From an uncultured Clostridia bacterium (GTDB taxonomy: Bacteria > Bacillota > Clostridia > Christensenellales > UBA1242): a DNA stretch of 64,000 bases. The stretch covers positions 33,941-97,940 of the forward strand of contig CALWTS010000004.1 in the NCBI GenBank assembly GCA_944384535.1, written 5' to 3'. The notes beneath the pieces are model-generated. The model worked only from the letters and a program-made list of their open reading frames with translations. It was not told the origin of the DNA and did not search any database. Shown here one piece after another: positions 17,435 to 39,123 of the stretch (positions are counted from its first letter, which is position 1; every line of letters begins with the position of its first letter). The translations under genes were made by a program, and so were the position numbers.

Positions 17435-18094
17435 ATGATTAAAATAAGAAAAAGTTGGTTTGAAATTTTAAATGATGAATTTAATAAGGAATATTTTAAA
17501 AAATTACAAAGTTTTCTCAAAAATGAATATAAAAGTTATGAAATTTATCCATCAGAAGACAAAATATTTAATTCATTAAACCATGTTCCTTTGGATAAAA
17601 TTAAAGTAGTAATAATAGGTCAAGATCCTTACCATGAACCTGGGCAAGCTCAAGGATTATCATTTTCTGTTCCAGAAAATGTTGATATTCCCCCATCTCT
17701 TGTTAATATCATGCAAGAAATAGAAAACGATTTAAATATTAAATGTGAAAAAAATGGAAATCTAGAAAGATGGGCTAATCAAGGAGTATTATTATTAAAC
17801 ACAGTTCTAACCGTTCGAAAAGGTCAAGCAAACTCTCATAAAGAAAAAGGATGGGAAATATTAACAAAAAAAATTATAGAAATAATTGGAAAAAGAGAAA
17901 AACCTGTCGTATTCATGTTATGGGGTTCTTATGCACAAAAATATAGTGATTTGATTGCTCCTCAACACCTTATACTTAAAGCACCGCATCCTAGTCCATT
18001 ATCTGCTTATAGAGGATTTTTTGGATGCAAACATTTTTCAAAATGTAATGACTTTTTGATAAAAAATGGAGAAACTCCTATAGATTGGAAATAA
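17435..18094 (+). CDS. ung: uracil-DNA glycosylase
   Basis: GQDPYH water-activating loop, HPSPLS motif, 219 aa. Confidence 0.95.
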   Translation: MIKIRKSWFEILNDEFNKEYFKKLQSFLKNEYKSYEIYPSEDKIFNSLNHVPLDKIKVVIIGQDPYHEPGQAQGLSFSVPENVDIPPSLVNIMQEIENDLNIKCEKNGNLERWANQGVLLLNTVLTVRKGQANSHKEKGWEILTKKIIEIIGKREKPVVFMLWGSYAQKYSDLIAPQHLILKAPHPSPLSAYRGFFGCKHFSKCNDFLIKNGETPIDWK

Positions 18095-18121
18095 AAAAAA
18101 GACATTTTGTCTTTTTTTTTA
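18093..18121. terminator. bidirectional terminator between ung and PHFHF cassette 1
   Basis: A-run, AAAGAC-atttt-GTCTTT, T-run. Confidence 0.75.
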
Positions 18122-18502
18122 TTTGTTTTCAGTTTCAGCAAAAACTTTATCTGCATATATCTCAACTTTTATAAAATCTTGAATTTGCTTTAATAAATCC
18201 ATTCCTGAATCTATTTCTAGTTCTAATTTATCAAAAAATTCTACATTATATTTTGTAGCGAACTTTTCTATTAATTTAATAGGATTAAGGTTTTTAACTT
18301 CATCATCTCCAACCCAATTTTCAAACAAAAAGTAATCATCTGTCATAAAAACTTTATCTTCTTCTTGATAGAAAATAACAAAAATCAAAGCATTTAATGA
18401 TTGATACTTTATTAATGTTGTAAGTTTGAAATAATCCCCATTATCTTCTACAACTCCTATTTTAAAACTTTCAACCTTTTTTCTTAATAAATCTATATTC
18501 AT
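18119..18502 (-). CDS. small acidic protein, member B of cassette 1 (family shared with 18499-18852 and 35455-35853)
   Basis: 127 aa; 26 D/E versus 16 K/R by hand count. ATGA start/stop overlap with the upstream gene. Shared landmarks: ...EEDKVFMTDD..., LIEKFATKYNVEFFD, DFIKVEIYAD. Confidence 0.7.
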   Translation of the reverse strand: MNIDLLRKKVESFKIGVVEDNGDYFKLTTLIKYQSLNALIFVIFYQEEDKVFMTDDYFLFENWVGDDEVKNLNPIKLIEKFATKYNVEFFDKLELEIDSGMDLLKQIQDFIKVEIYADKVFAETENK

Positions 18503-18852
18503 TTTTTCTCTCCATTTTGCATTAAGTCCGCATATATCATTATTGAAACAAAATTTTGTACATCATAATAAATTTTGTTAAGAGAAGCTTTTGTATAACA
18601 ATAATTTTCTTCGTTAATAAAAATGTTGTTATCTTTCAAAAATTTTATTAAATCAGCACTAAAAAAACCACATCCTTTTTTTATGGATTTTAAATCTGAC
18701 AAAAATATTTCATCCTCTATTATTTCTAAACAAACTTTTAACTGCTCCTTATCATTAATTAAATAAGGCCATTTAATAATAATTTTATTGTCTTGTTGTG
18801 TAAAATCAATATTAAAATTAGTTAAAATGTTTATAAGTTCTTTAAAGTTCAT
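18499..18852 (-). CDS. small protein, member A of cassette 1 (same family)
   Basis: 117 aa. Starts 20 nt after the stop of the large gene and ends in TGA inside an ATGA overlap. Landmarks: IIEDEIFLSD, LIKFLKDNNIFINEE, NFVSIMIYAD. Confidence 0.7.
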   Translation of the reverse strand: MNFKELINILTNFNIDFTQQDNKIIIKWPYLINDKEQLKVCLEIIEDEIFLSDLKSIKKGCGFFSADLIKFLKDNNIFINEENYCYTKASLNKIYYDVQNFVSIMIYADLMQNGEKK

Positions 18853-18872
18853 TAAATCACTCCTTTTTAACT

Positions 18873-20000
18873 CTAATCACTTTCGTTTTCATCTGAGTTT
18901 TTATCTAGTTTGCTCTCTTCAGAAATATTTTCAATATCATCTCTATCAATAATAATTAAAGCTATTTCATATAATTTTTCAGAAAAATTCTTTTGTTCCC
19001 AATCTTTTCTATCAATTTGAATATTATTTAACTTTAAACAATTCTTATCATCTTTTTTAAAAATTTTTTCAATTTTATTTATCTTTTCTCTAGCCGATAA
19101 TAATATAACTTTAATTAAATATGTAAATATGCCATTTTTAATTTGTGCTCCGCTATCTAACAAAATATGTAATTTATTAAAATCATTATCATCTTTTATA
19201 TTTTTTAAAATATCTTTTATTTTTAATTTTAAACTTTTGTTTAAATCATCTTTAGACATAGAATCGATATTTTTAGAAAGCTTATAGTCAAGAAATGGTA
19301 ATCCAATTGAATATTGATTTAAAATATTTCCTTTTTCCGCTGTAATTAAATCTTTTAAATACATTATCAAATTATCAACATTTATTGCTAAACAATCTTG
19401 ATAATCAGGATTATTAAAATGAAAATGAGGAGGTGTAACAATGATACCATAATATTTTTTAAATAATGCAAGTTCATCATCACTTTTATTTAAACAATCT
19501 AAACTATTTTGGTGCATATATTGAGAGTTTACATCAAATCTTTCTAATTGTATAAGTTTTTGAGGATCAGAAGTTGGCATAACAACTGTAAAATAACTCA
19601 TATTTTTTTCTATTACGGGTCTTCTACTTTCATCTTTATCAGTAAAATGAGCAGTAATTAATAAAACGTTCCCATCTACTCTATAAAAACTAACTATGCT
19701 ATCTTTTAATATATTTACAATTACTTTTTTTCTTTTTCCTTTTTCTCTGACTTTTTTTCTTAATAAAATACTACCATGTTGAGTATCAAAACAAGTTTCT
19801 CTCTCTCCTAAAAGATAATCTGAAATTTGCTCTCCATCAGATAACCTTAACGAATTTATATCATTCCAACGTGTTCTATTTATATAAGGTTTATTAGTTG
19901 TATCATTTTTATTATAATCCAAAAAAGCTACAACTTTCTCATCGGTCGAACTACCATCTTTATTTATTATATCTGTTGCTTGAGTAATCTTATCTTTCAT
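18873..20000 (-). CDS. unassigned PHFHF-motif protein (cassette 1 large subunit)
   Basis: The ATG at 20000 follows GAGAGGTG. The 22 extra codons in the track ORF run through the promoter and terminator. No TM, signal peptide or Walker motif. Shares a conserved core with 35819-37258 (DPxK, R[FY]D, HxN, PHFHFxN, G[LM]PFL[DE]YK). Confidence 0.75.
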   Translation of the reverse strand: MKDKITQATDIINKDGSSTDEKVVAFLDYNKNDTTNKPYINRTRWNDINSLRLSDGEQISDYLLGERETCFDTQHGSILLRKKVREKGKRKKVIVNILKDSIVSFYRVDGNVLLITAHFTDKDESRRPVIEKNMSYFTVVMPTSDPQKLIQLERFDVNSQYMHQNSLDCLNKSDDELALFKKYYGIIVTPPHFHFNNPDYQDCLAINVDNLIMYLKDLITAEKGNILNQYSIGLPFLDYKLSKNIDSMSKDDLNKSLKLKIKDILKNIKDDNDFNKLHILLDSGAQIKNGIFTYLIKVILLSAREKINKIEKIFKKDDKNCLKLNNIQIDRKDWEQKNFSEKLYEIALIIIDRDDIENISEESKLDKNSDENESD

Positions 20001-20016
20001 AACACCTCTCACATAG

Positions 20017-20045
20017 ATTATACACAAAAAATAATTAAAAATCAA
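20017..20045 (-). promoter_or_regulatory. sigma-A-type promoter of cassette 1
   Basis: Minus strand: TTGATT (20040-20045), 17-nt spacer, TATAAT (20017-20022), 16 nt before the ATG. Confidence 0.5.
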
Positions 20046-20052
20046 TAACTCT

Positions 20053-20081
20053 AAAAAAAAGATCACAACAAAGTTGTGATC
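20053..20081 (-). terminator. rho-independent terminator after the Glu-rich protein gene
   Basis: Minus strand: GATCACAAC-ttt-GTTGTGATC followed by TTTTTTTT. Confidence 0.8.
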
Positions 20082-20150: not shown

Positions 20151-21266
20151 TTATTCTGCATTAGTACTATCTGTTGCACTATCATCTGAAGTTGATTTTA
20201 ATTCTTCAATAGCTTCTTGAAGTTTTTTAATGTTATTTTTGATTTCAGCATTTCTTGATGATAACAAGTTAAATATTTGTTCTAATAATGGATATCTTTG
20301 TTCATTTTTGCTCATTACTTCTTCGCAATGTTGAACAGAAAGTTTTAAACCATCTAATAAATCTAAATCTTCAGCAAGCTTCTTTGCTTTTTCTTCATCA
20401 ATATCGGCATAGTTATTAACACCATAAAGAACAACTTTTTGTTTTGCAACTAAAGCTTCTTTTCTACGAAGTTTCTTTTCATCATTTTCAAGAGTTCTCT
20501 TAACTCTTCTTAAAGGTAAGAACTCTTTTTTGCATTGACGAAGTTCTTTTTCATTAACTTTAAGCTTAGCCTGTTCATCAGCAAGTTTTGCTTCAATTTC
20601 TTCTAAAGTCATTGTTGCTGCTAATCCCTGTTCCCCTTCACCAGCAGCAATAGCATTTTCGAATTTAGCTTCTGTAATATCAGGAACAACAGGTTGTTCA
20701 GGTTCTTCCTTAACTTCCTCTTCCTCTTCCTCTTTTTCCTCTTTTTCCTCTTTTTCCTCTTCTTCTTGAGAAACATCTACAGCATTATTTTCTTCTTTTT
20801 CTTCTTCCTCTTCTTGTTGCATTCTCGCAAGTCTTTCCATCAATTCTTGTCTACGTTGTCTAATATATTCGGAAGCTTCATCTTGATCATCTTCCTCTTC
20901 TTCTTCCTCTTCTTCTTGTTCTTGTACAGGTTCTTCCTTAACTTCTTCTTTAACTTCTTCTTTTTCTTCTTCTTGTTCTTCATTTACTTCTTCAACTTTC
21001 TTTTCTTCATCAGGATTATAGTTTTCTACTACAGCACCATTATAAAGAATAGTTGTAGAATTCTCTTTGCCTTGACTATTTTCAAGAGCTTTAACTCTTG
21101 ATTCTAACTCTTTTTGTTTCTTTAGTTGTGCATTTTTGATAGCTTCGTCATCTTTAGCTTTGTTAGAGATGCTCATTAATAAATCACCAACAAAATATAG
21201 AAGAAATCCTCCTGCAACGATGATACCAAGAACAACAACAATTGTAACAATTACTGAACTTGACAT
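20151..21266 (-). CDS. membrane-anchored Glu/Lys-rich coiled-coil protein (low complexity)
   Basis: N-terminal TM segment (VIVTIVVVLGIIVAGGFLLYFVG). Long poly-E/EK tracts (EQEEEEEEEEDDQDE; EEEEKEEKEEKEEEEEEVKEE). C-terminal heptad-like helical region. RBS AAGGAGTG. Confidence 0.7.
   Translation of the reverse strand: MSSSVIVTIVVVLGIIVAGGFLLYFVGDLLMSISNKAKDDEAIKNAQLKKQKELESRVKALENSQGKENSTTILYNGAVVENYNPDEEKKVEEVNEEQEEEKEEVKEEVKEEPVQEQEEEEEEEEDDQDEASEYIRQRRQELMERLARMQQEEEEEKEENNAVDVSQEEEEKEEKEEKEEEEEEVKEEPEQPVVPDITEAKFENAIAAGEGEQGLAATMTLEEIEAKLADEQAKLKVNEKELRQCKKEFLPLRRVKRTLENDEKKLRRKEALVAKQKVVLYGVNNYADIDEEKAKKLAEDLDLLDGLKLSVQHCEEVMSKNEQRYPLLEQIFNLLSSRNAEIKNNIKKLQEAIEELKSTSDDSATDSTNAE
20715..20767 (-). 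repeat. imperfect tandem 6-9-bp GAA/GAG-rich repeats encoding the poly-Glu tract
   Basis: Plus strand reads ttcctcttcctcttcctctttttcctctttttcctctttttcctcttcttc. Confidence 0.7.
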
Positions 21267-28035: not shown

Positions 28036-29796
28036 TTATTCAACAGTAACACTTTTTGCTAAATTTCTCGGCATGTCTGGATTAAGTCCCATTTTTACTG
28101 CGGTAAAATAAGCTAATTTTTGTAAGATAATAATACTTTGGATAGGTAAAAATTTTTCATCACAACGTCTTATCTTTATTATAAAATCAAAGTTATCTTT
28201 AATCTCTTTATTAATAGCAATTGAAGTAATCAAAATCAATTTTCCTCCCCTCGCTTTGACTTCATAAGCATTATTTAAAACCTTGGCGAAAGTTTTTTTG
28301 TCAGTTGCAACCACAATAACTGGAATTTCTTTTTCTATCAAAGCTAATGTTCCATGCTTTAATTCTCCACTACATTCTGCAAAAGCATAAATATAAGTTA
28401 TTTCTTTCAATTTTAAAGCTGCTTCCAATGAAGTTATATAATCTATACCTCTACCTATGAAAAATACTTTATCCTTATAAGACAAATAACTAGCTAATCT
28501 TTTGATTAAAGAGTTATTTCCTAAACTTAATTTACCTTTAAAAGTTATTAAATTACTAATAAAATCTTCATTTTTAAAACTTTTTGCCAATATATAAAAT
28601 ATTATGCATTGTGCTAAATATGCTTTTGTTGATGCAACCGCCTTTTCTAAACCTGCACAAATAGGGAAAAAGTCATCTGCTATTCTTGTTATTGTACTAT
28701 ATTCAGCATTAACAATTGCAATAGTTTTTGCACCTCTATTTTTAGCAAATTTTAAAGCGGTAATAGTATCAGCAGTTTCTCCACTTTGACTGATAAAAAA
28801 ACATAAAGATTTGTTGTCTAAGATATTTTTTTCAAATATAAATTCACTAGCTTTACAAACAAAAATATCTTTTTCTAACATTTCTTTAAAATACATCTGC
28901 CCCACAAGACCAGCATGATAAGCAGTTCCGCAACCAACCAAATAAATTCTATTAAAATTCTTTATATTCAATGACTTTAATCTAAATATCAACTGTGATT
29001 GTTTATATCTCTCTATAATATTGTCTATTATAGATTTACTTTCATTTATCTCTTTTAACATGTAATATTTAAATTTATTTTTATCATCTGCAAGTTCTTT
29101 GGTTTTAATTTTACTTACTTTTTTTTCAACCATTTGGGAATCTTGATTATAAACTTCAATGCCATTTAATGAAATTTTCCCATACTCACCATCATCAATA
29201 GTTAAATATTTGTTAAATTTCCCAAAAAAGCAACTTGGATCACTCGCAACCATCATGCTCTTTTCTTTAAAAGCAATATAAAGAGGACTTTTATATTTAG
29301 CAAAAAACAACTCTTTTTTGTTTTTTGATATAGAAACAATTGAAAAAGAACCTTCAAGAAGAGAAAAGAGTTTTTTTATTTTTTTTAAAGATAGATTTTC
29401 ACCAAGAATTTTTGCCACAACTTCACTATCTGTTTCTCCATAAAACTTAATACCTTTTTTTACTAACTTTTCTTTTAATTTTTCAAAATTCTCAATAATG
29501 CCATTATGAACCAAACAAATTTCATTTTTAAAAGAAAAATGAGGATGACAATTTTCTAAAGAAATTTTTCCATGAGTTGCCCAACGTGTATGAGCAATCC
29601 CTACACCATCAAATTCTATGTCTTTTACATTTTCTTTTAAATTATCAACGGAGCCAACTGTCTTTCTTACAATAAAATTATTATTATACTGAATAACCAT
29701 TCCTGCAGAATCATACCCTCTATATTCTAATCTCTCCAATCCTTCTATTAAATTTTTCTTTACATTTTTGCCAATGTATCCTATTATACCACACAT
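28036..29796 (-). CDS. glmS: glutamine--fructose-6-phosphate aminotransferase
   Basis: MCGIIGYIG N-terminal Cys nucleophile, two SIS domains, C-terminal ...RNLAKSVTVE. Confidence 0.95.
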   Translation of the reverse strand: MCGIIGYIGKNVKKNLIEGLERLEYRGYDSAGMVIQYNNNFIVRKTVGSVDNLKENVKDIEFDGVGIAHTRWATHGKISLENCHPHFSFKNEICLVHNGIIENFEKLKEKLVKKGIKFYGETDSEVVAKILGENLSLKKIKKLFSLLEGSFSIVSISKNKKELFFAKYKSPLYIAFKEKSMMVASDPSCFFGKFNKYLTIDDGEYGKISLNGIEVYNQDSQMVEKKVSKIKTKELADDKNKFKYYMLKEINESKSIIDNIIERYKQSQLIFRLKSLNIKNFNRIYLVGCGTAYHAGLVGQMYFKEMLEKDIFVCKASEFIFEKNILDNKSLCFFISQSGETADTITALKFAKNRGAKTIAIVNAEYSTITRIADDFFPICAGLEKAVASTKAYLAQCIIFYILAKSFKNEDFISNLITFKGKLSLGNNSLIKRLASYLSYKDKVFFIGRGIDYITSLEAALKLKEITYIYAFAECSGELKHGTLALIEKEIPVIVVATDKKTFAKVLNNAYEVKARGGKLILITSIAINKEIKDNFDFIIKIRRCDEKFLPIQSIIILQKLAYFTAVKMGLNPDMPRNLAKSVTVE

Positions 29797-29897
29797 AAAA
29801 ATCTCCTTAATTATTTTTTATGCAAAAAAAATTAATGAAGAAACAATAACAATATTTTTTCATATATATTTCCTATGAAGTACAAATATAATTTGAG

Positions 29898-30515
29898 GTG
29901 AAAATGACAAAATTTATAAATAAAAAGAGCTGTTTTATTGGAAAAAATGTAAAATTTGGAAAAAATGTTACAATTTATGAAAACAATCACATAGATGGTA
30001 ATTCATACATAGGAGATAATTGTATCATTTATCCTAATAATTTTATAAATAACTGTTATGTCGACAACAATTGTAAAATTTACATATCTTTCCTTGAAGA
30101 TAGTTTTATAAAAAGAGACTGTATCATTGGACCTTTTGCAAGGCTTAGACCTAATAGTAATATTTCTGAAAATTGCAAAATCGGAAATTTTGTAGAAGTC
30201 AAAAATTCCAAAATTGGAAATGGAACCAAAGCAAGTCACCTTTCATATATAGGAGACAGTGAATTGGGTGAAAATTGTAATATTGGTTGTGGTGTTATAT
30301 TCGTAAACTATAATGGCAAAGAAAAACAACATATCAAAATAGGAAATCATGTTTTTGTTGGATCAAATTGCAATTTAATTGCACCAATAGAAATCGCTGA
30401 TGATAGTTTCATTTGTGCCGGAACAACAGTAACTGAAAATACTCAAAAAGGTGATTTTGTAATTGGAAGAGTTCGACAGGAAATTAAACACGAAAAAGCT
30501 AAAAAATATTGGTAA
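29898..30515 (+). CDS. stand-alone GlmU-type left-handed beta-helix acetyltransferase domain (no uridyltransferase domain)
   Basis: 205 aa matching only the C-terminal half of GlmU (RLRPNSNISENCKIGNFVEVKNSKIGNGTKASHLSYIGDSELGENCNIGCGVIFVNYNG...). An ATG at 29904 is an alternative start. Confidence 0.75.
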   Translation: MKMTKFINKKSCFIGKNVKFGKNVTIYENNHIDGNSYIGDNCIIYPNNFINNCYVDNNCKIYISFLEDSFIKRDCIIGPFARLRPNSNISENCKIGNFVEVKNSKIGNGTKASHLSYIGDSELGENCNIGCGVIFVNYNGKEKQHIKIGNHVFVGSNCNLIAPIEIADDSFICAGTTVTENTQKGDFVIGRVRQEIKHEKAKKYW

Positions 30516-30542
30516 TAATCATAACAAATTAAAAGGAGAAAA

Positions 30543-31835
30543 ATGGGTACTTATTTTGGAACTGATGGTATAAGAGGAGTTTTTGGAGAAGAACTCTCCC
30601 CTGATTTAGCAATGAAATGCGGAAATAGTTTGTCAAGACTTTGTATAAGAAAAAAAGTTATCATTGGAAGAGATACAAGAATTACAGGAGATTTACTTGC
30701 TTTATCCTTTTCAAGTGGACTTATAAGTGGTGGTATAAATGTTATAGATGTTGGAGTTGCTACAACACCTTGTATCGCGTTTTTAACAAAGAAATTAAAT
30801 TGTGATTTTGGTGTTGTAATTAGTGCAAGTCATAATCCAAGTGAATTTAATGGTATAAAGATTTTTAACTCAAATGGCTATAAAATTGATGAGGATTTAG
30901 AGAGTCAAATTGAAAGAAAATTTTTTCAACCTGTATATAAAAATTATGAAAATATTGGACATTATTATTACAGTCCAAAATTACTAAAACTTTATTATAA
31001 ATCCATATCAAATATAATTACACCTCTAAACAAAATAAAAATCGTAGTCGACTGTGCAAATGGTGCATCTTATAAAATAGCAAGAATACTTTTTAAAAAA
31101 CTAAATACAAAAATATATTTTATAAACAATAAAAACGATGGATTAAACATAAATAATAATTGTGGTGCACTCTTTCCTCAAACACTATCAAAAGTAGTTT
31201 TAGAAAAAAAAGCGGATATTGGTTTTGCATTTGATGGAGATGCAGACAGAATTATTTGCTGTGATGAGAAAGGTAACATTATTGATGGAGACGATATACT
31301 TTATATTTTACGCCAATTTTCAAATAATAAGATTGTGGGAACTTCAATTTCTAACAAAGGTTTAGAAAATACTTTAAAACAACAAAATATTGAGTTTTAT
31401 AGAGCAGATGTTGGAGATAAATATGTCATTGAAACGATGAATAAAAACCAAATTTTATTAGGAGGAGAACCTTCCGGACATATAATTGTATATCCTTTTT
31501 CTACAACTGGAGATGGCATACTTACCGCATTGTTGATTTGTCAAGTTCTAAATGAAAAGCATAAAAAGCTTTCAGAACTTGTTGACTACAAGAAGTTTCC
31601 ACAAATTAATATAAATATAAGTGTTAAAGATAAATTTCGAGTTTTAAATTCAGATTTACTTTCTTCTCAAATATTAAAAATTCAACAAATGTTTGGAGAA
31701 AATGGAAGAATTCTTGTAAGAGCAAGTGGAACAGAACCTAAACTAAGAATAATGTGTGAACATATAAACTTAAAAATCGCACAAAAATATTCTACTATTT
31801 TAAAAAAAATAGTTTTGAGCTTAAACAAAAAATAA
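30543..31835 (+). CDS. glmM: phosphoglucosamine mutase
   Basis: SASHNP phosphoserine loop, DGDADR metal loop, GGEPSGH sugar loop. Confidence 0.95.
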   Translation: MGTYFGTDGIRGVFGEELSPDLAMKCGNSLSRLCIRKKVIIGRDTRITGDLLALSFSSGLISGGINVIDVGVATTPCIAFLTKKLNCDFGVVISASHNPSEFNGIKIFNSNGYKIDEDLESQIERKFFQPVYKNYENIGHYYYSPKLLKLYYKSISNIITPLNKIKIVVDCANGASYKIARILFKKLNTKIYFINNKNDGLNINNNCGALFPQTLSKVVLEKKADIGFAFDGDADRIICCDEKGNIIDGDDILYILRQFSNNKIVGTSISNKGLENTLKQQNIEFYRADVGDKYVIETMNKNQILLGGEPSGHIIVYPFSTTGDGILTALLICQVLNEKHKKLSELVDYKKFPQININISVKDKFRVLNSDLLSSQILKIQQMFGENGRILVRASGTEPKLRIMCEHINLKIAQKYSTILKKIVLSLNKK

Positions 31836-31857
31836 AAGAGAGTACTCTCTTTTATTT
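31834..31857. terminator. bidirectional hairpin between glmM and the ABC permease
   Basis: Palindrome AAAGAGAGT/ACTCTCTTT flanked by A and T runs. Confidence 0.6.
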
Positions 31858-33468
31858 TTATAGTGGTAAGTCTTTTTTATCAAATCTAAAAACACCTATT
31901 ATAAATGTTACAACACCTATTGCAAATAAAACACCAAATTTCCATAAATAATTTATAGAACCATTTAATATTGAAGTTGTATCAAATAATGTAATTACAG
32001 ACAAATAATTAAAGAAGTTCATTTGAGATATTCTCATTGCAGAAGGTACAACTTCTGAACCAAACAAACCTAAGATAGTACAAACCAATGAGAAAATTGT
32101 TAAACCTCCACCTATTGACATTGAATATTTAGAACGATTAAATATCGCAGAACACATAAAGCAATATCCAGCAATAGCAAACATTGATAAAAATGCTCCT
32201 AAATTTAGCAACAATATTTCACTAAAATTAATCGCAAAAGCATCACCACCAACAATCCAAACAGCTATTACACTCACAACTGTTAATAGAGAGAACATTG
32301 CTAGTAAAGCCACCAATAAATAAGTCATTTGAGTAGCGGTGACAGTTCTTCTTTTTGTTGGAGTAGATAAAACATAAGCCATAGAACCAGAATCCACTTG
32401 CCCTGCAATAAGACCATTAGCAGTCATTATTACAAAAACCATTGGCAACAAAAGTCCTGCGATTTTATAGAAGATTGAACCAATAATCAATCCGTAAATA
32501 TCCATATTTCCTAATTCACTCAAAGCAACAGCTACTTTTTCTGGAATTTGATCAGATATACTTTTGGTTGCCTCTGCCCGTGCCTCTTCTTGAGTTTTTC
32601 CCTCTCCTAACCATAACTGATAAGTACTCAAAGCTGTATTAGAAATTACTTTAACGGAAACTGCATATTGTTTTGCAACTTCTTCATCTTCTCCACTTGC
32701 AATTTGAGTTTGATATACATTTTCATACATAAAAGTATTTACGTAATTTGTAGCAACTGAGTAATAGTTTTCGATATTAAATTGAAAAGACGTGCCTGCA
32801 GTTTCTTTGTCTTGTTTATATTGAGAAATTGCATCTACAGCAATCTCCTGAGACTTATCAGCTTTTGTAGTTGCTGTAATTGAAGCTTCTTCTTCTGTTG
32901 CACCATTTTCAATTTCTCTATTATATACTTCTAAATAAGATTGTTGATAAATTTGAGTTAAAAAATATTTATCAAATAAGTCTGTACCTTTCACAGAAGT
33001 ATCTTCAATATAAACATTTAAAACACTTGATACGAGCATAACCATTTCATCTTCAGTCATTCCTACAATAGATGAAAAAGGTTTCATTTCATTTGCTACT
33101 TCTAGAATAATTTGACTTTTTTCTTCCCCATTTGGTTCCCTTTCATTATCCTGTTCAAATTGTTGAACTTTACCATCATATTTAGTTGTAATTATGCTGA
33201 TATATGAACTAAATTGTACATTTTGGTTATAATTTAATAAAGTTGCTAAATATAAATCATAACTATCAACAACATCTTCCTTCACAGAAGATTCTTGATC
33301 CGCTTGCACAAAAACCTGCTTTAAAGAATCTCGAATATCATTAATACCAAGATTCCCTAGCACAATAATAACAATAGCAAGCATTATACAAGTTGATGCC
33401 GTGACAGCAACCCATTTTATCCAATTAGCTTTAACCGACTGTTTAAAAAGTGCTTTACTAAAATACAT
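31858..33468 (-). CDS. ABC-2-type transporter permease with large extracytoplasmic loop
   Basis: N-terminal TM, a hydrophilic loop of about 300 aa, then 5 C-terminal TM segments. The ATG at 33468 follows AGGAGG and sits 1 nt after the ATPase stop. Confidence 0.75.
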   Translation of the reverse strand: MYFSKALFKQSVKANWIKWVAVTASTCIMLAIVIIVLGNLGINDIRDSLKQVFVQADQESSVKEDVVDSYDLYLATLLNYNQNVQFSSYISIITTKYDGKVQQFEQDNEREPNGEEKSQIILEVANEMKPFSSIVGMTEDEMVMLVSSVLNVYIEDTSVKGTDLFDKYFLTQIYQQSYLEVYNREIENGATEEEASITATTKADKSQEIAVDAISQYKQDKETAGTSFQFNIENYYSVATNYVNTFMYENVYQTQIASGEDEEVAKQYAVSVKVISNTALSTYQLWLGEGKTQEEARAEATKSISDQIPEKVAVALSELGNMDIYGLIIGSIFYKIAGLLLPMVFVIMTANGLIAGQVDSGSMAYVLSTPTKRRTVTATQMTYLLVALLAMFSLLTVVSVIAVWIVGGDAFAINFSEILLLNLGAFLSMFAIAGYCFMCSAIFNRSKYSMSIGGGLTIFSLVCTILGLFGSEVVPSAMRISQMNFFNYLSVITLFDTTSILNGSINYLWKFGVLFAIGVVTFIIGVFRFDKKDLPL

Positions 33469-33469
33469 T

Positions 33470-34375
33470 TTAACCTCCTTTTTTATTGGCTTCTTGTAAA
33501 ATTTCTTTGAAATGCTTTTCAAGATTATGTTTTACTTCAGAAATAAATTTTAAATCATAATTTCTCAAAATATTAAATAATCTATTCATCTCTTTATCAA
33601 AAATTTTTATCGTAACTTGATTATATTTTTCCTGGTCTCTAACTATCTCAAACTTTAATGTCTTAAACTTTAAATAATCATCTCTAGTTTTAAACTCAAT
33701 CTTATAATTTTTATAAGGTAAATTTTTTAACTCATTAACATCTGCAATATCAACAATTCTTCCATTGTAAATAAGAGCAACCCTATCGCATGTTATCTCA
33801 AGTTCATCAAAGACCTGACTACTCATAAGAATTGTTTTTCCCTTTTTCTTTTCTTCTAAAATCAATTCTAAAAAAGTTTCTCTCATTAATGGATCAAGTC
33901 CTGTAGTAGGTTCATCTAAAATCAAAATATCCTTATCCGCCATAAGAGCAGCAACAATGGCTGTTTTTTGCTTCATACCTTTACTCATTCGCTTTAAATT
34001 AGCAGATGGATCTAATTGTAACCTTTCAATTAAATAATTTGCATAACTCATATCTTTAATTTTTAATAACTCTGCTTGTGCTTTTAAAAACGTTGTTCCA
34101 TATTGTAAATCTGGAAAAGCAATTTCTCCTGGTACATAACCAACAAAATTTTTGATTTCACATGAATCCTTCCATGCATCTTTACCAAGGACAAAGACTT
34201 CTCCTTTTTGAGGTTTTAAAAACCCCATAATGTGACGGATTGTCGTAGTTTTTCCACTACCATTTGTTCCTACAAAACCAAATGTCTCTCCTTTATTAAC
34301 AGAAAAACTTATATCAAATATACCTCTTCCATTTCCATAATCTTTTGTGAGGTCTTTTACCGTAATTACTTCCAT
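33470..34375 (-). CDS. ABC transporter ATP-binding protein
   Basis: Walker A GTNGSGKTT, signature MSKGMKQK, Walker B ILILDEPTTGLD. Confidence 0.9.
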   Translation of the reverse strand: MEVITVKDLTKDYGNGRGIFDISFSVNKGETFGFVGTNGSGKTTTIRHIMGFLKPQKGEVFVLGKDAWKDSCEIKNFVGYVPGEIAFPDLQYGTTFLKAQAELLKIKDMSYANYLIERLQLDPSANLKRMSKGMKQKTAIVAALMADKDILILDEPTTGLDPLMRETFLELILEEKKKGKTILMSSQVFDELEITCDRVALIYNGRIVDIADVNELKNLPYKNYKIEFKTRDDYLKFKTLKFEIVRDQEKYNQVTIKIFDKEMNRLFNILRNYDLKFISEVKHNLEKHFKEILQEANKKGG

Positions 34376-35322
34376 TTAAACATACCTCCAAAATTTTTAT
34401 CTTCTTTATAAAATTGCATGAAATAATCTTCTAAAGTAAATTTAATTTGTATAAACGAATTTATCTTATATAGAGAAATTAAATTCATAAACTCATTAAC
34501 ATCTTTATCATTTACAGCAACTAAAACAGTCAATTCTTTTTCATTAACTTCTTTTATGCCTATACGTTTAATATTTGTTATATCTTTCCTTGTTTTTGGA
34601 AGTTTTGAAACAAAATCCTTTAACTCATTTAATTTTGCAAATTTTACCTTGAAATTTTTGTTTTCGTTATGCTTAATATCGTTCGCATCAAACATAGAAA
34701 CTATTTTCCCATCTTTAATAATTGCAATTCTATCACAAGTAGCTTCTACTTCATTAAACATATGAGAAGATAACAAAATCGTTTTTCCTCTTTTCTTTTC
34801 CTCTTTAATCAAATCAATAAAAACCTGTTGCATTACAGGATCTAATCCGCTTGTCGGCTCATCTAATATTAAAACATCAGGATCATGCATAAAAGCGACT
34901 ACAATAGCTAACTTTCTTTTATCTCCAAGTGACATTTTCTTTGTTTCAGCATTTGGATTGAATTTAAAAATTTGTAATAGATAATCCAATCTTTCTTTAT
35001 TTGTCACTTTTCGAAGATTATTCATCATTTCTATAAATTCAACACCTGTTAATCCTTCAGGTAATGCGATTTCTCCAGGCAAATAACCAACTTTATCTAA
35101 AAATTTGTTATAATTGTGAAAAGTCTCTAAATCAAAAATTCTTGTCTCACCTTTTTGTGGCTTTGAAAATCCCATTAAATGTCTTATCGTTGTAGACTTA
35201 CCAGCTCCGTTTGGCCCCAAAAATCCAAAGACTTCTCCTTGTTTTACAGAAAAAGTGACATCAAAAACCCCTCTTCCATGTCCGTAATCTTGAGTTAGAT
35301 TTTTTACTTCAATTATATCCAT
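34366..35322 (-). CDS. ABC transporter ATP-binding protein
   Basis: Walker A GPNGAGKST, signature LSLGDKRK, Walker B VLILDEPTSGLD. Overlaps the next ATPase gene by 10 nt. Confidence 0.9.
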   Translation of the reverse strand: MDIIEVKNLTQDYGHGRGVFDVTFSVKQGEVFGFLGPNGAGKSTTIRHLMGFSKPQKGETRIFDLETFHNYNKFLDKVGYLPGEIALPEGLTGVEFIEMMNNLRKVTNKERLDYLLQIFKFNPNAETKKMSLGDKRKLAIVVAFMHDPDVLILDEPTSGLDPVMQQVFIDLIKEEKKRGKTILLSSHMFNEVEATCDRIAIIKDGKIVSMFDANDIKHNENKNFKVKFAKLNELKDFVSKLPKTRKDITNIKRIGIKEVNEKELTVLVAVNDKDVNEFMNLISLYKINSFIQIKFTLEDYFMQFYKEDKNFGGMFKWK

Positions 35323-35430
35323 AGAGCCTCCTTACAAGCAAATATATATTTTTTAATTCGCAGAAATGTCACTTAAATTTGTTATATACATAGTATAACA
35401 CTTAAAACAAAAAAAAAGCAATTAAATTAA

Positions 35431-35459
35431 AAAAATAAAATAGAGAAAGCATCTCTATT
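35431..35459 (-). terminator. rho-independent terminator of PHFHF cassette 2
   Basis: Minus strand: AATAGAGA-tgctt-TCTCTATT followed by TTATTTTT. Overlaps the stop of the small gene. Confidence 0.65.
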
Positions 35460-35853
35460 CTACATTTCCATTAATCATCTCAAACAATAACAACGCTCTA
35501 ATAAATTTATTATAATCTATTATTATTTCATCAGGATTTATTTTTATTAAAAATCTATTGTCCTCAAACTCAATATTATTTTCTTTAATAAACCTATTAA
35601 AGAATTTATTTTCAAATTCTCCAAAATGTTCGTTAATTACAGAGTTGAAAACATCACCATAATCACAAAAATAAAATTCTTCATTAACTGAAATTAAATA
35701 AATTTTTAAAACATCAAAATTATTTAGCAACATTAGATTTGTGTTAATTATGTATTTTTCTTCATTTACTTTCTTTATATTTATAGAACCTATATAATCA
35801 CTTAATTTTATAACAAGTTCATTTATTTTCATTTTCATCTCCAAACTTTTCAT
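35455..35853 (-). CDS. small protein of cassette 2 (same family as 18119-18502 and 18499-18852)
   Basis: Landmarks: LISVNEEFYFCDYGD, FIKENNIEFEDNRF, KFIRALLLFEMI. The likely true start is the ATG at 35832, 6 nt after GGAG. That gives a 14-nt overlap with the large gene instead of 35 nt. Confidence 0.7.
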   Translation of the reverse strand: MKSLEMKMKINELVIKLSDYIGSINIKKVNEEKYIINTNLMLLNNFDVLKIYLISVNEEFYFCDYGDVFNSVINEHFGEFENKFFNRFIKENNIEFEDNRFLIKINPDEIIIDYNKFIRALLLFEMINGNVE

Positions 35854-37258
35854 TATTCTTTGTTAAACGATGAGAGTCTATCTCAAATGTTGTTTTTTTC
35901 AACTTTTGATTTTCATTTGATGTGTTTTTACAAATACCATCAACTAGATTATTTGCCAATAAAACTTCTAAATTAGATAAAATCTCTTTATAATCCAAAT
36001 CTTGGCTGTTATTTGAATTATATATTTCATCATGAATAAATTGTAAAAAATCTAAAATTTTAATAAATTGAGCAAAAAAAGTATACTTTTTTGATGAATT
36101 TGGAACATTTTGTTTTAATGAATTAAAACGATTAATTAATTTATCAAACATTTCAAGATTTTCTTTATTTAAACCATTTCTATACTTTTCAAGTATATCA
36201 TTAAAGTTTAATGTCATTGATTTGTTAAATACTTTATATTCCAAAAACGGCATACCATAGTCCAATCCATTATCAAAATCTCTTTTTAATTCTTCATAAC
36301 TTTTATTATCTAGGTTTATTAAATATCTTTTTAAATGAGGAATATCAATTGCGTTGCATCTTCCCGTCTTATATTTAGTTCTTCTATCTTTACCTATAAA
36401 TTTCTTTACACATAGCAAATTATCATCTTCATTTTGAAAATGAAAATGAGGATTTTGTGCTATGGCACCAAAAACATCTTGTCTTTTATCATTCCCAATA
36501 TATAAATTATTATGGTCATGTGTTGCACTATCATATCTAAAGTACGGCATTGCTTTATTAGGATCCCCATCTAATATGCAATACATACAAATAGACAAAC
36601 TTCTTTGGTACGCAACATTATCAAGATAAATTTTATCATCGTTTGTTAAAACTTTTTTTCTCGCTTTAACTATTTTCATACTAGCTGGCTGATATCTCAA
36701 ATCAACGACTTTTGAATATATATTTCTTTGAGATTTTGATAAATAAAATTTTGTATCATTGAATATTATATCTTTGCTTTCTTTTGCCTTTAATTCATCA
36801 ACATATGTATTTTTAAAAAGATAAAGAGGAGAATTATAATCGTAATATTTTTGTAATATTGGAAATTTAGAATCAGAAAGTAATGTTAAAAAATCATGTT
36901 TTTTTAATATAAAAGGAACATATCTCCAACGTTTTTCTAAAAATTCATCAACAGAAAAATCTTTTAAAACTTTTTCTGCGATATCTTTGATATAAATATT
37001 ATTTTTATCAGCATTTTGGAAATGTCTTAAAACATCTAAATATATATATTGTTTTATTATTTGTTTTGCTTCTTCCTCGCTTTTTCCTTTTTCCATAAGT
37101 TGTAATATCAATTTAACTGTGGCTTCTTTACCACTTGTAAATAAAAATGTTTGCACATATTCAAAAACATCTTCATCAATTTTATTTAAAGAAAAATTAT
37201 AAGATTTTGCTTTTTTCTTTGTTAAAGAATTTCTATTTTTAAAATCTTTTGTGTACAT
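35819..37258 (-). CDS. unassigned PHFHF-motif protein (cassette 2 large subunit)
   Basis: The ATG at 37258 follows GGGAG. 479 aa. The core ...DGDPNKAMPYFRYDSATHDHNN...GAIAQNPHFHFQNEDD...NAIDIPHLKRYLINL...YGMPFLEYKV is homologous to 18873-20000. It has an extra N-terminal region of about 200 aa. Confidence 0.75.
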   Translation of the reverse strand: MYTKDFKNRNSLTKKKAKSYNFSLNKIDEDVFEYVQTFLFTSGKEATVKLILQLMEKGKSEEEAKQIIKQYIYLDVLRHFQNADKNNIYIKDIAEKVLKDFSVDEFLEKRWRYVPFILKKHDFLTLLSDSKFPILQKYYDYNSPLYLFKNTYVDELKAKESKDIIFNDTKFYLSKSQRNIYSKVVDLRYQPASMKIVKARKKVLTNDDKIYLDNVAYQRSLSICMYCILDGDPNKAMPYFRYDSATHDHNNLYIGNDKRQDVFGAIAQNPHFHFQNEDDNLLCVKKFIGKDRRTKYKTGRCNAIDIPHLKRYLINLDNKSYEELKRDFDNGLDYGMPFLEYKVFNKSMTLNFNDILEKYRNGLNKENLEMFDKLINRFNSLKQNVPNSSKKYTFFAQFIKILDFLQFIHDEIYNSNNSQDLDYKEILSNLEVLLANNLVDGICKNTSNENQKLKKTTFEIDSHRLTKNNEKFGDENENK

Positions 37259-37291
37259 TTTTACTCCCAATTATCAAATTTTCCCAAATCT

Positions 37292-37319
37292 ATTTTAACA
37301 TATATTAATAAAATTTCAA
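37292..37319 (-). promoter_or_regulatory. sigma-A-type promoter of cassette 2 (extended -10)
   Basis: Minus strand: TTGAAA (37314-37319), 16-nt spacer ending in TGT, TAAAAT (37292-37297). Confidence 0.45.
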
Positions 37320-37347
37320 TAGAAATAAAAATATTTAAGCAATATTT

Positions 37348-39123
37348 TTACTTTTGTATTTTTTCCCAATCTTTTAGTAATTTATTTAAATAATTAAAAC
37401 ATTCAATAAAAGTATTCTCATTTTCTAAATCACAACCAGCTTTTTTTAAAATGTTGATAGGTGTATCACTTGAACCAGCAGTTAAAAAACTGTAATATTG
37501 TTTAAGTGAATTTTCTTTATTTAGCAAAATTTTGTTCACAAATGTAATTGCACATATCATACCAGTTGCATATTTATATACATAAAATGCATTAAAAAAG
37601 TGAGGAATTCTTGCCCATTCGTACTTTATTTCCCTAATTAATTTAGTTTTACCAAAATATTTTTTATTCAATTCATAATATACTTCATTTATTCTATCTT
37701 TAGAAAGAGCTTCACCTTTTTCATATATATTATGAACTTTCTCCTCAAACTCAGCAAACATCGTTTGTCTAAAAATAGTTCCTTTCACTTCATCAAAAAG
37801 TTTATTATATAGATAAATTTTTTCTTTAGTATTTTGAGTTGTATTTAACAAATAATTAATTAATAAAATTTCATTTGTAGTGCTAGCTATCTCTGCTAAA
37901 AATATAGTATAATCAGCTTTTTGACGTGGTTGATTTATGTCAGAAAAATAAGAATGCATAGCATGACCTAATTCATGAGCAAGGGTAAAAACTGAATCTA
38001 AATCCCCCTCAAAATTAGTTAATACATAAGGATGAAAACCATAAATACATGTTTCATAAGCACCAGAACGTTTATCAATATTAGGATAAACATCTATCCA
38101 ACGTTCATCTTTAGCACGTTTTATTAAGTCTACATATTCTTCTCCTAATGGCTTTACTGCTTCCATTATTAAAGCTATTGCTTCATCATAAGTATATTTC
38201 CTCTTGTTTTTACATTCTATAATAGCCATATTATCATAGATATAAAAATCCTTCAACTTTAAAGCATTTTTTTTCAACTTAAAATATTTAAATAAAACTG
38301 TTAAATTTTTATTAACTTGTTCTATTAATGTATCATAAACTATTTTAGAAACTTCTTCATTAAAGAGTGCTTCATCAAGTGCCGATTGATATTTTCTTAT
38401 TTTTGCAAAGTAACAATTCTGTTTGATTTCAGAAATATAGTTATTTGCCAAGAAATTAATATATTTTCCAAATGCACCATTTAAAGCAATCATAGTATTT
38501 TTTCTTAACTCTCTATCCTTACTTCTCATTAATAAAGAATAATTAGATTGATTTAATTTGTGAAAATTACCCTTACTATCTTTTACATCTTGAAAAACTA
38601 AATCTACATCAGCAAATTTTCCCATATTTGATGAAAAACCATTTAAAAAATTCATACCAGAAAGTAATTTTTCTTCTTTTTTTGAAAGCATATGAATTTT
38701 ACTCTTTTTTATATTTTCAAACATTCTATCATAATTCTTAAATTTTTTATCACTAATTATGTCATCAATAATTTCATCTGATAGTTCGTGTAATTCTGAT
38801 GATGCAAAAGATGTTTCAATAGAAAATTCATTTAATAACAAACTTACCTTTTCTGCCATTTCATTTCTATTTCTATCTGACAGAAGCTCATCTTTTTTCA
38901 AATGTACATATAAACATAGAGGTTCAATTTCTTTTTCACATTTTTCATCTAATTTTAAAAATTTTAAAATTGTTTCTTTATTATTTAATTTGTTTTCAAA
39001 TTTTTTGAAATCTTTAATATATTCTTTTATTTTTATCAATCCTTGATTAAAATAATCTTCATTTGGACATAGAGATGTTAAATCCCATTTATACTTTTCA
39101 TTTATTTTATCTCTTTTTTTCAT
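37348..39123 (-). CDS. pepF: oligoendopeptidase F (M3B family)
   Basis: HELGHAMH zinc motif with downstream E (LAEIAST). 591 aa. Confidence 0.9.
   Translation of the reverse strand: MKKRDKINEKYKWDLTSLCPNEDYFNQGLIKIKEYIKDFKKFENKLNNKETILKFLKLDEKCEKEIEPLCLYVHLKKDELLSDRNRNEMAEKVSLLLNEFSIETSFASSELHELSDEIIDDIISDKKFKNYDRMFENIKKSKIHMLSKKEEKLLSGMNFLNGFSSNMGKFADVDLVFQDVKDSKGNFHKLNQSNYSLLMRSKDRELRKNTMIALNGAFGKYINFLANNYISEIKQNCYFAKIRKYQSALDEALFNEEVSKIVYDTLIEQVNKNLTVLFKYFKLKKNALKLKDFYIYDNMAIIECKNKRKYTYDEAIALIMEAVKPLGEEYVDLIKRAKDERWIDVYPNIDKRSGAYETCIYGFHPYVLTNFEGDLDSVFTLAHELGHAMHSYFSDINQPRQKADYTIFLAEIASTTNEILLINYLLNTTQNTKEKIYLYNKLFDEVKGTIFRQTMFAEFEEKVHNIYEKGEALSKDRINEVYYELNKKYFGKTKLIREIKYEWARIPHFFNAFYVYKYATGMICAITFVNKILLNKENSLKQYYSFLTAGSSDTPINILKKAGCDLENENTFIECFNYLNKLLKDWEKIQK

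Follow-up and report, generated by a model that had tools for sequence, protein, structure and literature searches.

What kind of gene pair lies between pepF and an ABC exporter operon in an uncultured gut Clostridia bacterium? The locus occupies the minus strand of a 64,000-nucleotide (nt) stretch of contig CALWTS010000004.1 (the window; 27% GC). It comprises a large gene encoding a protein of 479 amino acids (aa), here termed L2, and a small gene encoding its 125-aa partner, S2. On that strand the order is pepF (37348–39123), an 89-nt spacer, L2, S2, and the first ATPase gene of the ABC exporter operon (34366–35322). A paralogous unit elsewhere in the window, cassette 1, consists of a large gene, L1, and two small genes, S1a and S1b. 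A first reading of the letters alone (the sequence-only reading) had taken L2-S2 for a modular toxin or defence cassette inserted at this position. Comparative analysis leads to a different answer: L2-S2 is very probably an orthologous, vertically inherited locus of an uncultured low-GC animal-gut Clostridia lineage, and not a mobile cassette.

Conservation and inheritance of the locus

A scan of 185,579 GTDB species genomes identified 39 loci containing L2, all in metagenome-assembled genomes of uncultured gut 'Clostridia/Firmicutes'. The common gene order in these relatives is: MT-rluA-pepF; a variable segment of 0–5 kb; L2, with or without S2; an ABC operon of two ABC genes and a permease; and PGM in reversed orientation. 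pepF is found within 8 kb upstream of L2 in 28 of the 39 loci, and of the 35 loci whose downstream sequence is long enough, 34 have the ABC operon and/or PGM on that side. The one exception, L048, resembles the metagenome locus L008; both represent the most divergent L2 branch and have a different context. The downstream genes also differ in L006, another metagenome locus. An L2 relative of 24% identity, P0077, occupies the same slot, between GT4 and PGM and downstream of pepF.

The divergence of L2 follows that of its neighbour. Pairwise identities of L2 and of pepF are correlated (Pearson 0.85, Spearman 0.69), at a level reached in 0 of 2000 Mantel permutations. The evolutionary rate of L2 is about double that of pepF, as reflected in a median identity of 31% vs 61%. 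For pairs not saturated at synonymous sites, the ratio of nonsynonymous to synonymous substitution rates (dN/dS) is 0.08–0.20 for L2, 0.09–0.18 for S2, and 0.06–0.11 for pepF. The GC content dips only mildly across the locus, with 22–24% in L2-S2, 23–25% in pepF, and 27–29% in the ABC genes. No flanking repeats were found around L2-S2, and no L2 relatives were found in IMG/VR, among the INPHARED phages, or among the PLSDB plasmids. The retention of the slot in 34 of 35 loci, the co-divergence with pepF, and the lack of repeats and of phage or plasmid relatives argue against the earlier proposal that the pair was inserted, or independently acquired, between pepF and the ABC operon.

With pepF as the anchor, a scan of metagenome contigs from JGI/ENA yielded only more distant Firmicutes (pepF 34–53% identical), none of which has an L2-like open reading frame (ORF) within 10 kb. 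The nearest of these keep MT-rluA-pepF and have other genes downstream. This indicates that L2 was gained or originated in this slot close to the root of the low-GC lineage, with vertical inheritance from then on. By its own terms, the sequence-only reading would be refuted if related genomes always carried the pair within a conserved pepF operon of known function. Here, the outcome is divided: relatives do carry the gene at a conserved position, but it forms a separate transcription unit and has no known function.

The L2 protein and its superfamily

L2 belongs to a small group of proteins. A word-indexed search returned 54 clusters of full-length relatives with 24–52% identity, all unnamed and none with a Pfam domain. 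An HMMER scan of 1.84 billion cluster representatives found only 80 L2-related proteins at E up to 1e-3. The distant relatives are 170–560 aa long, and their common part is the core only. As defined by superfamily alignment and hhalign, this core covers approximately residues 215–345 of L2 (36224–36616, minus strand) and is common to cassette 1 and the distant relatives. Outside it, the N- and C-terminal regions of L2 diverge fast.

The residues kept in the core are R241, D243, H249, N251, H271, H273, F274, A303, I304, Y312, G335, P337, and F338. Three of these, H273, Y312, and P337, are invariant across the superfamily, making H273 the sole histidine that is invariant throughout. It is part of the PHFHF motif (P270–F274; 36437–36451, minus strand), which is placed on a predicted β-strand. 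C301, N302, D305, and H308 are invariant inside the L2 family, but not superfamily-wide.

An AlphaFold2 model of L2, built from a 54-sequence alignment, has a predicted local distance difference test (pLDDT) score of 88.4 and a predicted template modelling (pTM) score of 0.89. The model contains: a disordered basic tail (residues 1–28); a helical N-terminal bundle; a β-rich core (residues ~131–300); and a helical C-domain. In the predicted secondary structure, R241 and D243 are on one strand, H249 and N251 are in the next loop, and H271 and H273 are on the PHFHF strand. The model places H271-F-H273 within strand 271–274 and Y312 within helix 306–318.

Searches of family and structure libraries gave no counterpart. 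Foldseek comparison of the L2 model with the PDB and BFVD returned nothing with E <0.1, and searches of PDB sequences with family and superfamily profiles returned nothing meaningful. L2 and L1 had no match in Pfam, NCBIfam, PADLOC, or PHROGs, with PADLOC searched at E up to 1. Scans of 42 diverse superfamily members against Pfam (also at E up to 10) and PHROGs found no recurrent family. Chains of class II aminoacyl-tRNA synthetases and of PolG2 recur in the Foldseek list and were dismissed as noise (E = 0.8–4, TM score ~0.1).

As judged from these profiles and the predicted structure, L2 is a member of a rare, undescribed 'RYD-HxN-PHFHF-GMPFL' superfamily with a confidently modelled α/β architecture that has no solved or viral match. 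As a kind of protein, this superfamily is categorically new: it is absent from every family and structure library searched. Several of the distant relatives have one or two neighbours of ~120–130 aa, upstream or downstream. With 21.8 bits for DUF1828, one of these neighbours narrowly misses the cut-off.

The small partner S2

S2 is, by its predicted properties, a small DUF1828 protein of acidic character, and its gene is frequently lost. Its isoelectric point (pI) is 4.7, as compared to 9.0 for L2. It matches Pfam DUF1828 (PF08861) with 28.3 bits against a gathering cut-off of 22, and orthologues score 25.1, 32.7, and 48.5 bits. A word-indexed search with S2 gave only near-identical sequences, and its orthologues were taken from the loci. 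A hidden Markov model (HMM) of the S2 family places S2 directly after L2 in 21 of the 39 loci. It is absent in 16, and the remaining 2 are cut by contig ends, leaving 37 informative loci.

The losses of S2 amount to at least 3–4 independent events. One clade without S2 is also without the ABC operon, and S2 is usually missing from relatives that do not have this operon. In at least three other lineages (L018, L019/L024, and L040), S2 was lost and the operon kept. The S2-less L2 orthologues are full length. They retain the 19 conserved residues that were checked, with the exception of one Asn-to-Cys replacement in L043, and their loci keep the L2 promoter. In an S2-less pair, the dN/dS of L2 is 0.17. 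Because S2 is missing from 16 of 37 loci in which L2 is intact, an obligate toxin-antitoxin pair is unlikely. The two-component toxin or defence pair considered in the sequence-only reading is, as an obligate pair, not supported: L2 persists under purifying selection in the absence of its partner.

The presence of S2 correlates with the termini of L2. The disordered N-terminal tail is rich in Lys and Arg in orthologues with S2, with a median net charge of +6, vs a neutral tail (median 0) in those without (Mann-Whitney p = 0.008), and the C-terminal tails are longer in S2-bearing orthologues and short in S2-less ones (p = 0.0005); both statistics ignore phylogeny.

An AlphaFold2 model of S2 from a 4-sequence alignment (pLDDT 80) has the layout helix, four strands, helices, two strands, helix. 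The four top PDB matches of this model in Foldseek are InvB (two chains), SicP, and Spa15, with TM scores of 0.51–0.56, a top probability of 0.97, and a best E of 0.035. These are class I type III secretion chaperones (InvB 2FM8, SicP 1JYO, Spa15 2XGA). S2 is likewise small and acidic, has a similar predicted layout, and is encoded beside a larger protein with a disordered N-terminus; unlike them in sequence, it has no detectable similarity to these chaperones. To our knowledge, an injectisome is not expected in Clostridia. The likeness relates to how S2 may work, by binding a partner, and not to the family to which it belongs.

A second likeness is to the PADLOC profile PDC-M24B (255 positions), part of PDC-M24, an unvalidated PADLOC candidate. 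S2 and its orthologues exceed the Pfam gathering threshold for DUF1828, and the similarity to PDC-M24B, seen in 15 of 19 members of the S2 family, covers the N-terminal half of that profile, its first ~120 positions (best E = 1.4e-10). In contrast to that candidate, S2 is a stand-alone protein of ~125 aa without the C-terminal half. We know of no function for DUF1828. The literature barely mentions DUF1828 and DUF1829, and nothing was found there on PDC-M24. DUF1829 alone has newly been implicated in defence (HipAD/DS-6B, PMC13092281), and S2 is without DUF1829.

Layout and expression signals of the unit

The L2 ORF (35819–37258, minus strand) begins with an ATG at 37258 and ends with a stop codon at 35819–35821. 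A GGGAG Shine-Dalgarno sequence (37264–37268, minus strand) is located 5 nt 5′ of the ATG, and purine-rich GGAG/GAGG-like motifs precede the start in most L2 orthologues. The S2 ORF (35455–35832, minus strand) overlaps the 3′ end of L2 by 14 nt. Possible in-frame starts are at 35853, 35838, and 35832. The last is favoured by a GGAG 6 nt upstream (35839–35842, minus strand), and agrees with the 125-aa call on public contigs and with the N-termini of orthologues. The location of this GGAG within the 3′ end of L2 suggests that the two genes are translationally coupled. In orthologues, the junctions between L2 and the small gene are overlaps of 4–14 nt or short gaps.

Upstream of L2 is a predicted sigma-A-type promoter with an extended −10 element (37292–37319, minus strand). 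It consists of TTGAAA (37314–37319), a 16-nt spacer ending in TGT, and TAAAAT (37292–37297). In this AT-rich window, promoter-like matches occur at chance level, with 22 found vs 20 expected. The element TTGnnn-N16-18-TGn-TAnnnT is nonetheless found 5′ of the L2 start in 29 of 31 orthologous loci, mostly 45–63 nt upstream. The background is 3.0% of random 150-nt windows from the loci, and 0.6% at that position. The predicted promoter is well supported by this conservation, which indicates that L2-S2 is its own transcription unit and not part of a pepF operon.

Directly 3′ of the S2 stop is an intrinsic-terminator-like hairpin (35428–35470, minus strand) with the core stem GAAUAGAGA/UCUCUAUUU, followed by a T-run. 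Its folding energy of −15.7 kcal/mol (z = −6.0) was equalled by 0 of 200 shuffles. A simple terminator scanner missed it, since the stem has fewer than 3 G-C pairs. A second, all-A/U hairpin is positioned over the pepF stop codon (37323–37353, minus strand; −8.4 kcal/mol, z = −2.4, 5 of 200 shuffles equally stable). It is a possible, weakly indicated terminator separating pepF from L2. On the basis of these signals, 35428–37319 (minus strand) is a predicted independent two-gene transcription unit, L2-S2.

The descriptive part of the sequence-only reading is upheld by this analysis. The large ORF, the GGGAG, the promoter, the small-gene overlap, and the hairpin were all found where it had placed them. 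Its claim of a separate promoter gains from the conservation in 29 of 31 loci, and its terminator (35431–35459) from the z-score of the hairpin and the T-run behind it.

Near-identical DNA is present in chicken-gut, bird, and other gut or faecal metagenome runs, with a word share of up to 1.00. No RNA run is listed for the gene among these; the DNA runs listed are from chicken, bird, and other gut metagenomes.

In the window and a few other species, pepF abuts L2 directly (37259–37347 in the window). Most relatives have a variable segment of 2–5 kb between them (e.g. L012:5926-7795, L030:2824-7753), containing: an MBL-fold (Apyc1-like) gene; a GT4 glycosyltransferase gene; and often an ORF of ~765 aa without a firm Pfam match. 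Downstream of L2-S2 (28036–35322) are two tandem ABC ATPase genes and an ABC-2 permease gene, then envelope-precursor-like genes. The latter encode a PGM/PMM-family (GlmM-like) mutase, a hexapeptide-repeat transferase, and, to judge by its position, GlmS.

Relationship to cassette 1

Cassette 1 (18119–20000, minus strand) consists of L1 (18873–20000, 375 aa), S1a (18499–18852), and S1b (18119–18502), the latter two both DUF1828-like. The proposal that L2 is a diverged copy of the cassette-1 protein with a common core is corroborated by three comparisons. BLASTP of L2 against L1 gives E = 2e-7 over the stretch from PHFHF to GMPFL. An HMM of 54 L2-family sequences, built without L1, has L1 as its only other match among the 185 ORFs of the window (E = 3.4e-9). 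Alignment of the L2 family with the L1-like group by hhalign reaches a probability of 99.4% (E = 5.7e-22, 123 columns), so that the similarity is significant in profile-profile comparison as well. At positions invariant in the L2 family, L1 retains R, D, H, N, H, H, F, C, I, L, Y, L, P, and F. S1a and S1b are recognised by the HMM of the S2 family (E = 2.8e-7 and 6e-4, respectively), which puts all three small genes into a single DUF1828-like family.

The two units are alike in this homologous core and in gene order, with the large gene followed by one or more DUF1828-like small genes. They differ in that the identity is ~20–25%, the L1 N-terminus is shorter, L1 has no KYKTGRC hairpin, and there are two small genes as opposed to one. 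As the sequence-only reading had proposed, the BLASTP and hhalign values are those of old, strongly diverged paralogues and not of a recent repeat. L1 is nearly an orphan in databases, with 2 clusters; a word-indexed search for it returned only near-identical sequences.

Two structural differences named in the sequence-only reading require adjustment, while the third, a single partner gene (S2) in place of two (S1a and S1b), stands. An extra N-terminal region of ~200 aa had been ascribed to L2. L2 is indeed longer, chiefly through the helical bundle formed by its first ~110 aa, but the real excess is ~65–110 aa. In L1 the core is itself preceded by ~130–150 aa, some of which can be aligned with the L2 profile. 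The second difference was a basic insert in L2. This KKF...KYKTGRC segment is present, nearly invariant in the L2 family, and a predicted β-hairpin, and it has no match in L1. Other distant relatives have a counterpart of the same length. The difference may reflect a deletion in the L1 branch and not an insertion in L2, as judged from the alignments.

Cassette-1-like layouts occur elsewhere in the superfamily. P0100 (386 aa; L050:6001-7903) is followed by genes of 118 and 130 aa, and P0098 (426 aa; L054:918-3042) is preceded by genes of 126 and 127 aa. The number and the order of partners are, on these gene calls, variable across the superfamily. Directly upstream of cassette 1 is a 371-aa ORF (20151–21266, minus strand) whose product has a hydrophobic segment at the N-terminus and a long low-complexity stretch rich in Glu and Lys.

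An outgroup Firmicute locus (L062:3395-4746, contig OKWJ01000369.1; pepF 43% identical) contains an ORF of 337 aa whose product has a basic N-tail and the motifs RYD, H, and PHSHP. This ORF overlaps a bona fide DUF1828 gene (25.3 bits) and adjoins a uracil-DNA glycosylase gene. Cassette 1 also abuts a uracil-DNA glycosylase gene (compare 17435–20066 of the window), in a different orientation. In hhalign comparison of the ORF with the superfamily profile the motifs line up, at a non-significant E of 0.046. It may represent a third, very divergent branch of the superfamily, to judge by its motifs.

Proposed function and competing explanations

The preferred reading is that of a vertically inherited locus in which L2 is an enzyme and S2 its chaperone or regulator, and to this picture as a whole a probability of roughly 45% is assigned. 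Its evolutionary part is firm; its biochemical part, which draws on sequence and models, is weak and taken alone is doubtful.

In this proposal, L2 would use a putative active-site cluster of R241/D243, H249/N251, and H271/H273. The proposal follows from the superfamily-wide retention of R, D, H, N, H, and H, a set usually kept for catalysis or ligand binding. The site would act either as a His-ligated metal site or through a catalytic His. The most likely substrate would be a phosphoester, nucleotide, or nucleic acid, for which the basic N-tail and the pI of 9 would be suited. S2 probably binds L2 directly, possibly at the basic tail, and would serve as a dedicated chaperone or regulator. The tail is suggested as the binding site because S2-bearing orthologues have a basic N-tail, which provides one lead. 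S2 would thus be an accessory and not an essential neutraliser. Retention of a near-consensus extended −10 promoter, together with the tolerated loss of S2, makes it probable that L2 has a cellular role in the lineage and is not a growth-arresting toxin.

Several observations weigh against this picture. The putative spatial clustering of the conserved residues is deduced only from sequence and predicted secondary structure. The S2 model is derived from a 4-sequence alignment, and its best Foldseek E is only 0.035. The correlation of tail charge with S2 is confounded by phylogeny, as the S2-less loci belong for the most part to a single clade. Since L2 itself was the query that gave the 39 loci, they do not demonstrate its presence in all genomes of the lineage. 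A conflict system would be equally compatible with several features: the rapid evolution, the presence of paralogues in a single genome, the varying count of small partners, the recurrence of DUF1828 in the PADLOC candidate PDC-M24B, and the weak SUKH-like neighbour of one distant relative.

Two explanations would make L2-S2 a conflict system. The pair could be a toxin-antitoxin or toxin-immunity system in which a toxic enzyme, L2, is restrained by the acidic S2. As in type II toxin-antitoxin modules, a basic and an acidic product are encoded by adjacent, co-oriented, co-transcribed genes with a small overlap and their own promoter and terminator. The same genome contains a paralogous unit, cassette 1, that has two small genes; this, the cassette-1-like relative with its 118- and 130-aa genes, and the evolution of L2, faster than that of its neighbours, point the same way. 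So does a 156-aa ORF (L049:1905-2375) just upstream of the relative P0087, which has a weak match to SUKH-1 (SMI1_KNR4; 20.8 bits vs a cut-off of 25.4). SUKH-1 is an immunity-protein family, and P0087 is without a DUF1828 neighbour. However, a restrained toxin is hard to reconcile with the loss of S2 from 16 of 37 loci that keep an L2 with its conserved residues, promoter, and purifying selection, or with the fixed position and co-divergence with the host. Searches of Pfam, NCBIfam, PADLOC, and PHROGs gave neither a domain of known toxins or antitoxins nor a DNA-binding module of the antitoxin kind. A polymorphic toxin would also require a domain for secretion or trafficking, and neither Pfam nor the L2 model indicates one. 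This explanation is therefore considered quite improbable. Somewhat less so, although still unlikely, is a chromosomally fixed anti-phage defence with S2 as the sensor or adaptor and L2 as the effector. It would account for the match of S2-family members to PDC-M24B, the rapidly diverging termini of L2 around a constant core, the paralogues with their variable partner number, and the variable 0–5 kb segment next to L2 in relatives. The PDC-M24B match is, however, confined to the DUF1828 half of an unvalidated candidate, and neither L2 nor L1 has a match in PADLOC-DB 2.0 at E up to 1. Among the loci found through L2, the unit keeps its synteny and is inherited vertically, with no patchy distribution. 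Its neighbours are housekeeping and envelope-precursor genes and not defence genes, the proposed sensor is dispensable, and no homologues were found in the phages or plasmids searched.

Two further explanations retain a chromosomal role and differ from the preferred reading in the chemistry of L2. L2 could be a domesticated HUH-type DNA-nicking enzyme (Rep, relaxase, or TnpA-like), with H271, H273, and H249 binding the metal and Y312 as the nucleophile. The likeness is by motif only: a His-hydrophobic-His on a predicted β-strand, with the second His, H273, universally invariant. A universally invariant Tyr follows 39 residues downstream on a helix, and the N-tail is basic. The upstream H-x-N/D resembles the 'HxD...PHxH' arrangement of relaxases. 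Opposed to this, L2 has no fold match to the HUH or HIT superfamilies: despite a confident model, no Rep, relaxase, or TnpA appears among the PDB Foldseek matches, and Pfam gives no match to any HUH family. No association with plasmids, phages, transposon ends, or repeats was found, and Y312 shares a helix face with L309, L313, and L316 and may be a mere core residue. Taken in sum, an HUH enzyme appears very improbable. The H-F-H-F-Q pattern of L2 also resembles the GalT-type HxHxQ. A HIT assignment was not supported at this level of comparison, as hhalign against HINT1 and FHIT gave a probability of 0.1%, no HIT structure is among the Foldseek matches, and Pfam gave no match. L2 may otherwise have no catalytic function and be a structural or regulatory protein particular to the lineage, associated for instance with the nucleoid or the envelope. 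The His and Asp residues would then be structural, e.g. a Zn site with C301 and H308. Its fixed position among GlmS, the PGM/GlmM-like gene, the hexapeptide transferase, and GT4 would suit such a role, as would a promoter that looks constitutive and the invariance of C301, N302, D305, and H308 within the L2 family but not across the superfamily. What argues against it is that the residues kept superfamily-wide, R, D, H, N, H, and H, are of the kind usually kept for chemistry or ligand binding; a non-catalytic protein of this kind is also quite unlikely.

Beyond the preferred reading of an enzyme with an accessory partner, a bolder version can be formulated. L2 would be the founding and best-conserved representative of a new enzyme fold with a His-centred site (RYD / HxN / PHFHF), accompanied by stand-alone DUF1828 proteins acting in the manner of secretion chaperones. 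The two would make up a two-part system not recognised before, perhaps a former conflict module that reduced-genome gut Clostridia have domesticated for a core function. This is possible, but on balance somewhat unlikely.

Implications

The analysis of synteny and of partner loss overturns the intuitive reading of this locus as a toxin or defence system, and the interpretation as an inserted modular cassette of that type is only partly supported. This carries a caution for defence and toxin prospecting. L2-S2 has the look of a conflict module, with a large variable protein, a small acidic partner, and paralogues, yet it evolves as a fixed chromosomal gene.

L2 itself is confidently folded in its model, under purifying selection, and expressed from a conserved predicted promoter, and it matches no family or structure. 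This makes it one of the cleaner cases of 'dark matter' in abundant uncultured bacteria of the animal gut. Characterisation of L2-S2 would for the first time place stand-alone DUF1828 proteins in a functional context; the domain is also found in a candidate defence gene. The chemistry of L2, once worked out, would assign a function to a superfamily of ~80 clusters at 50% identity.

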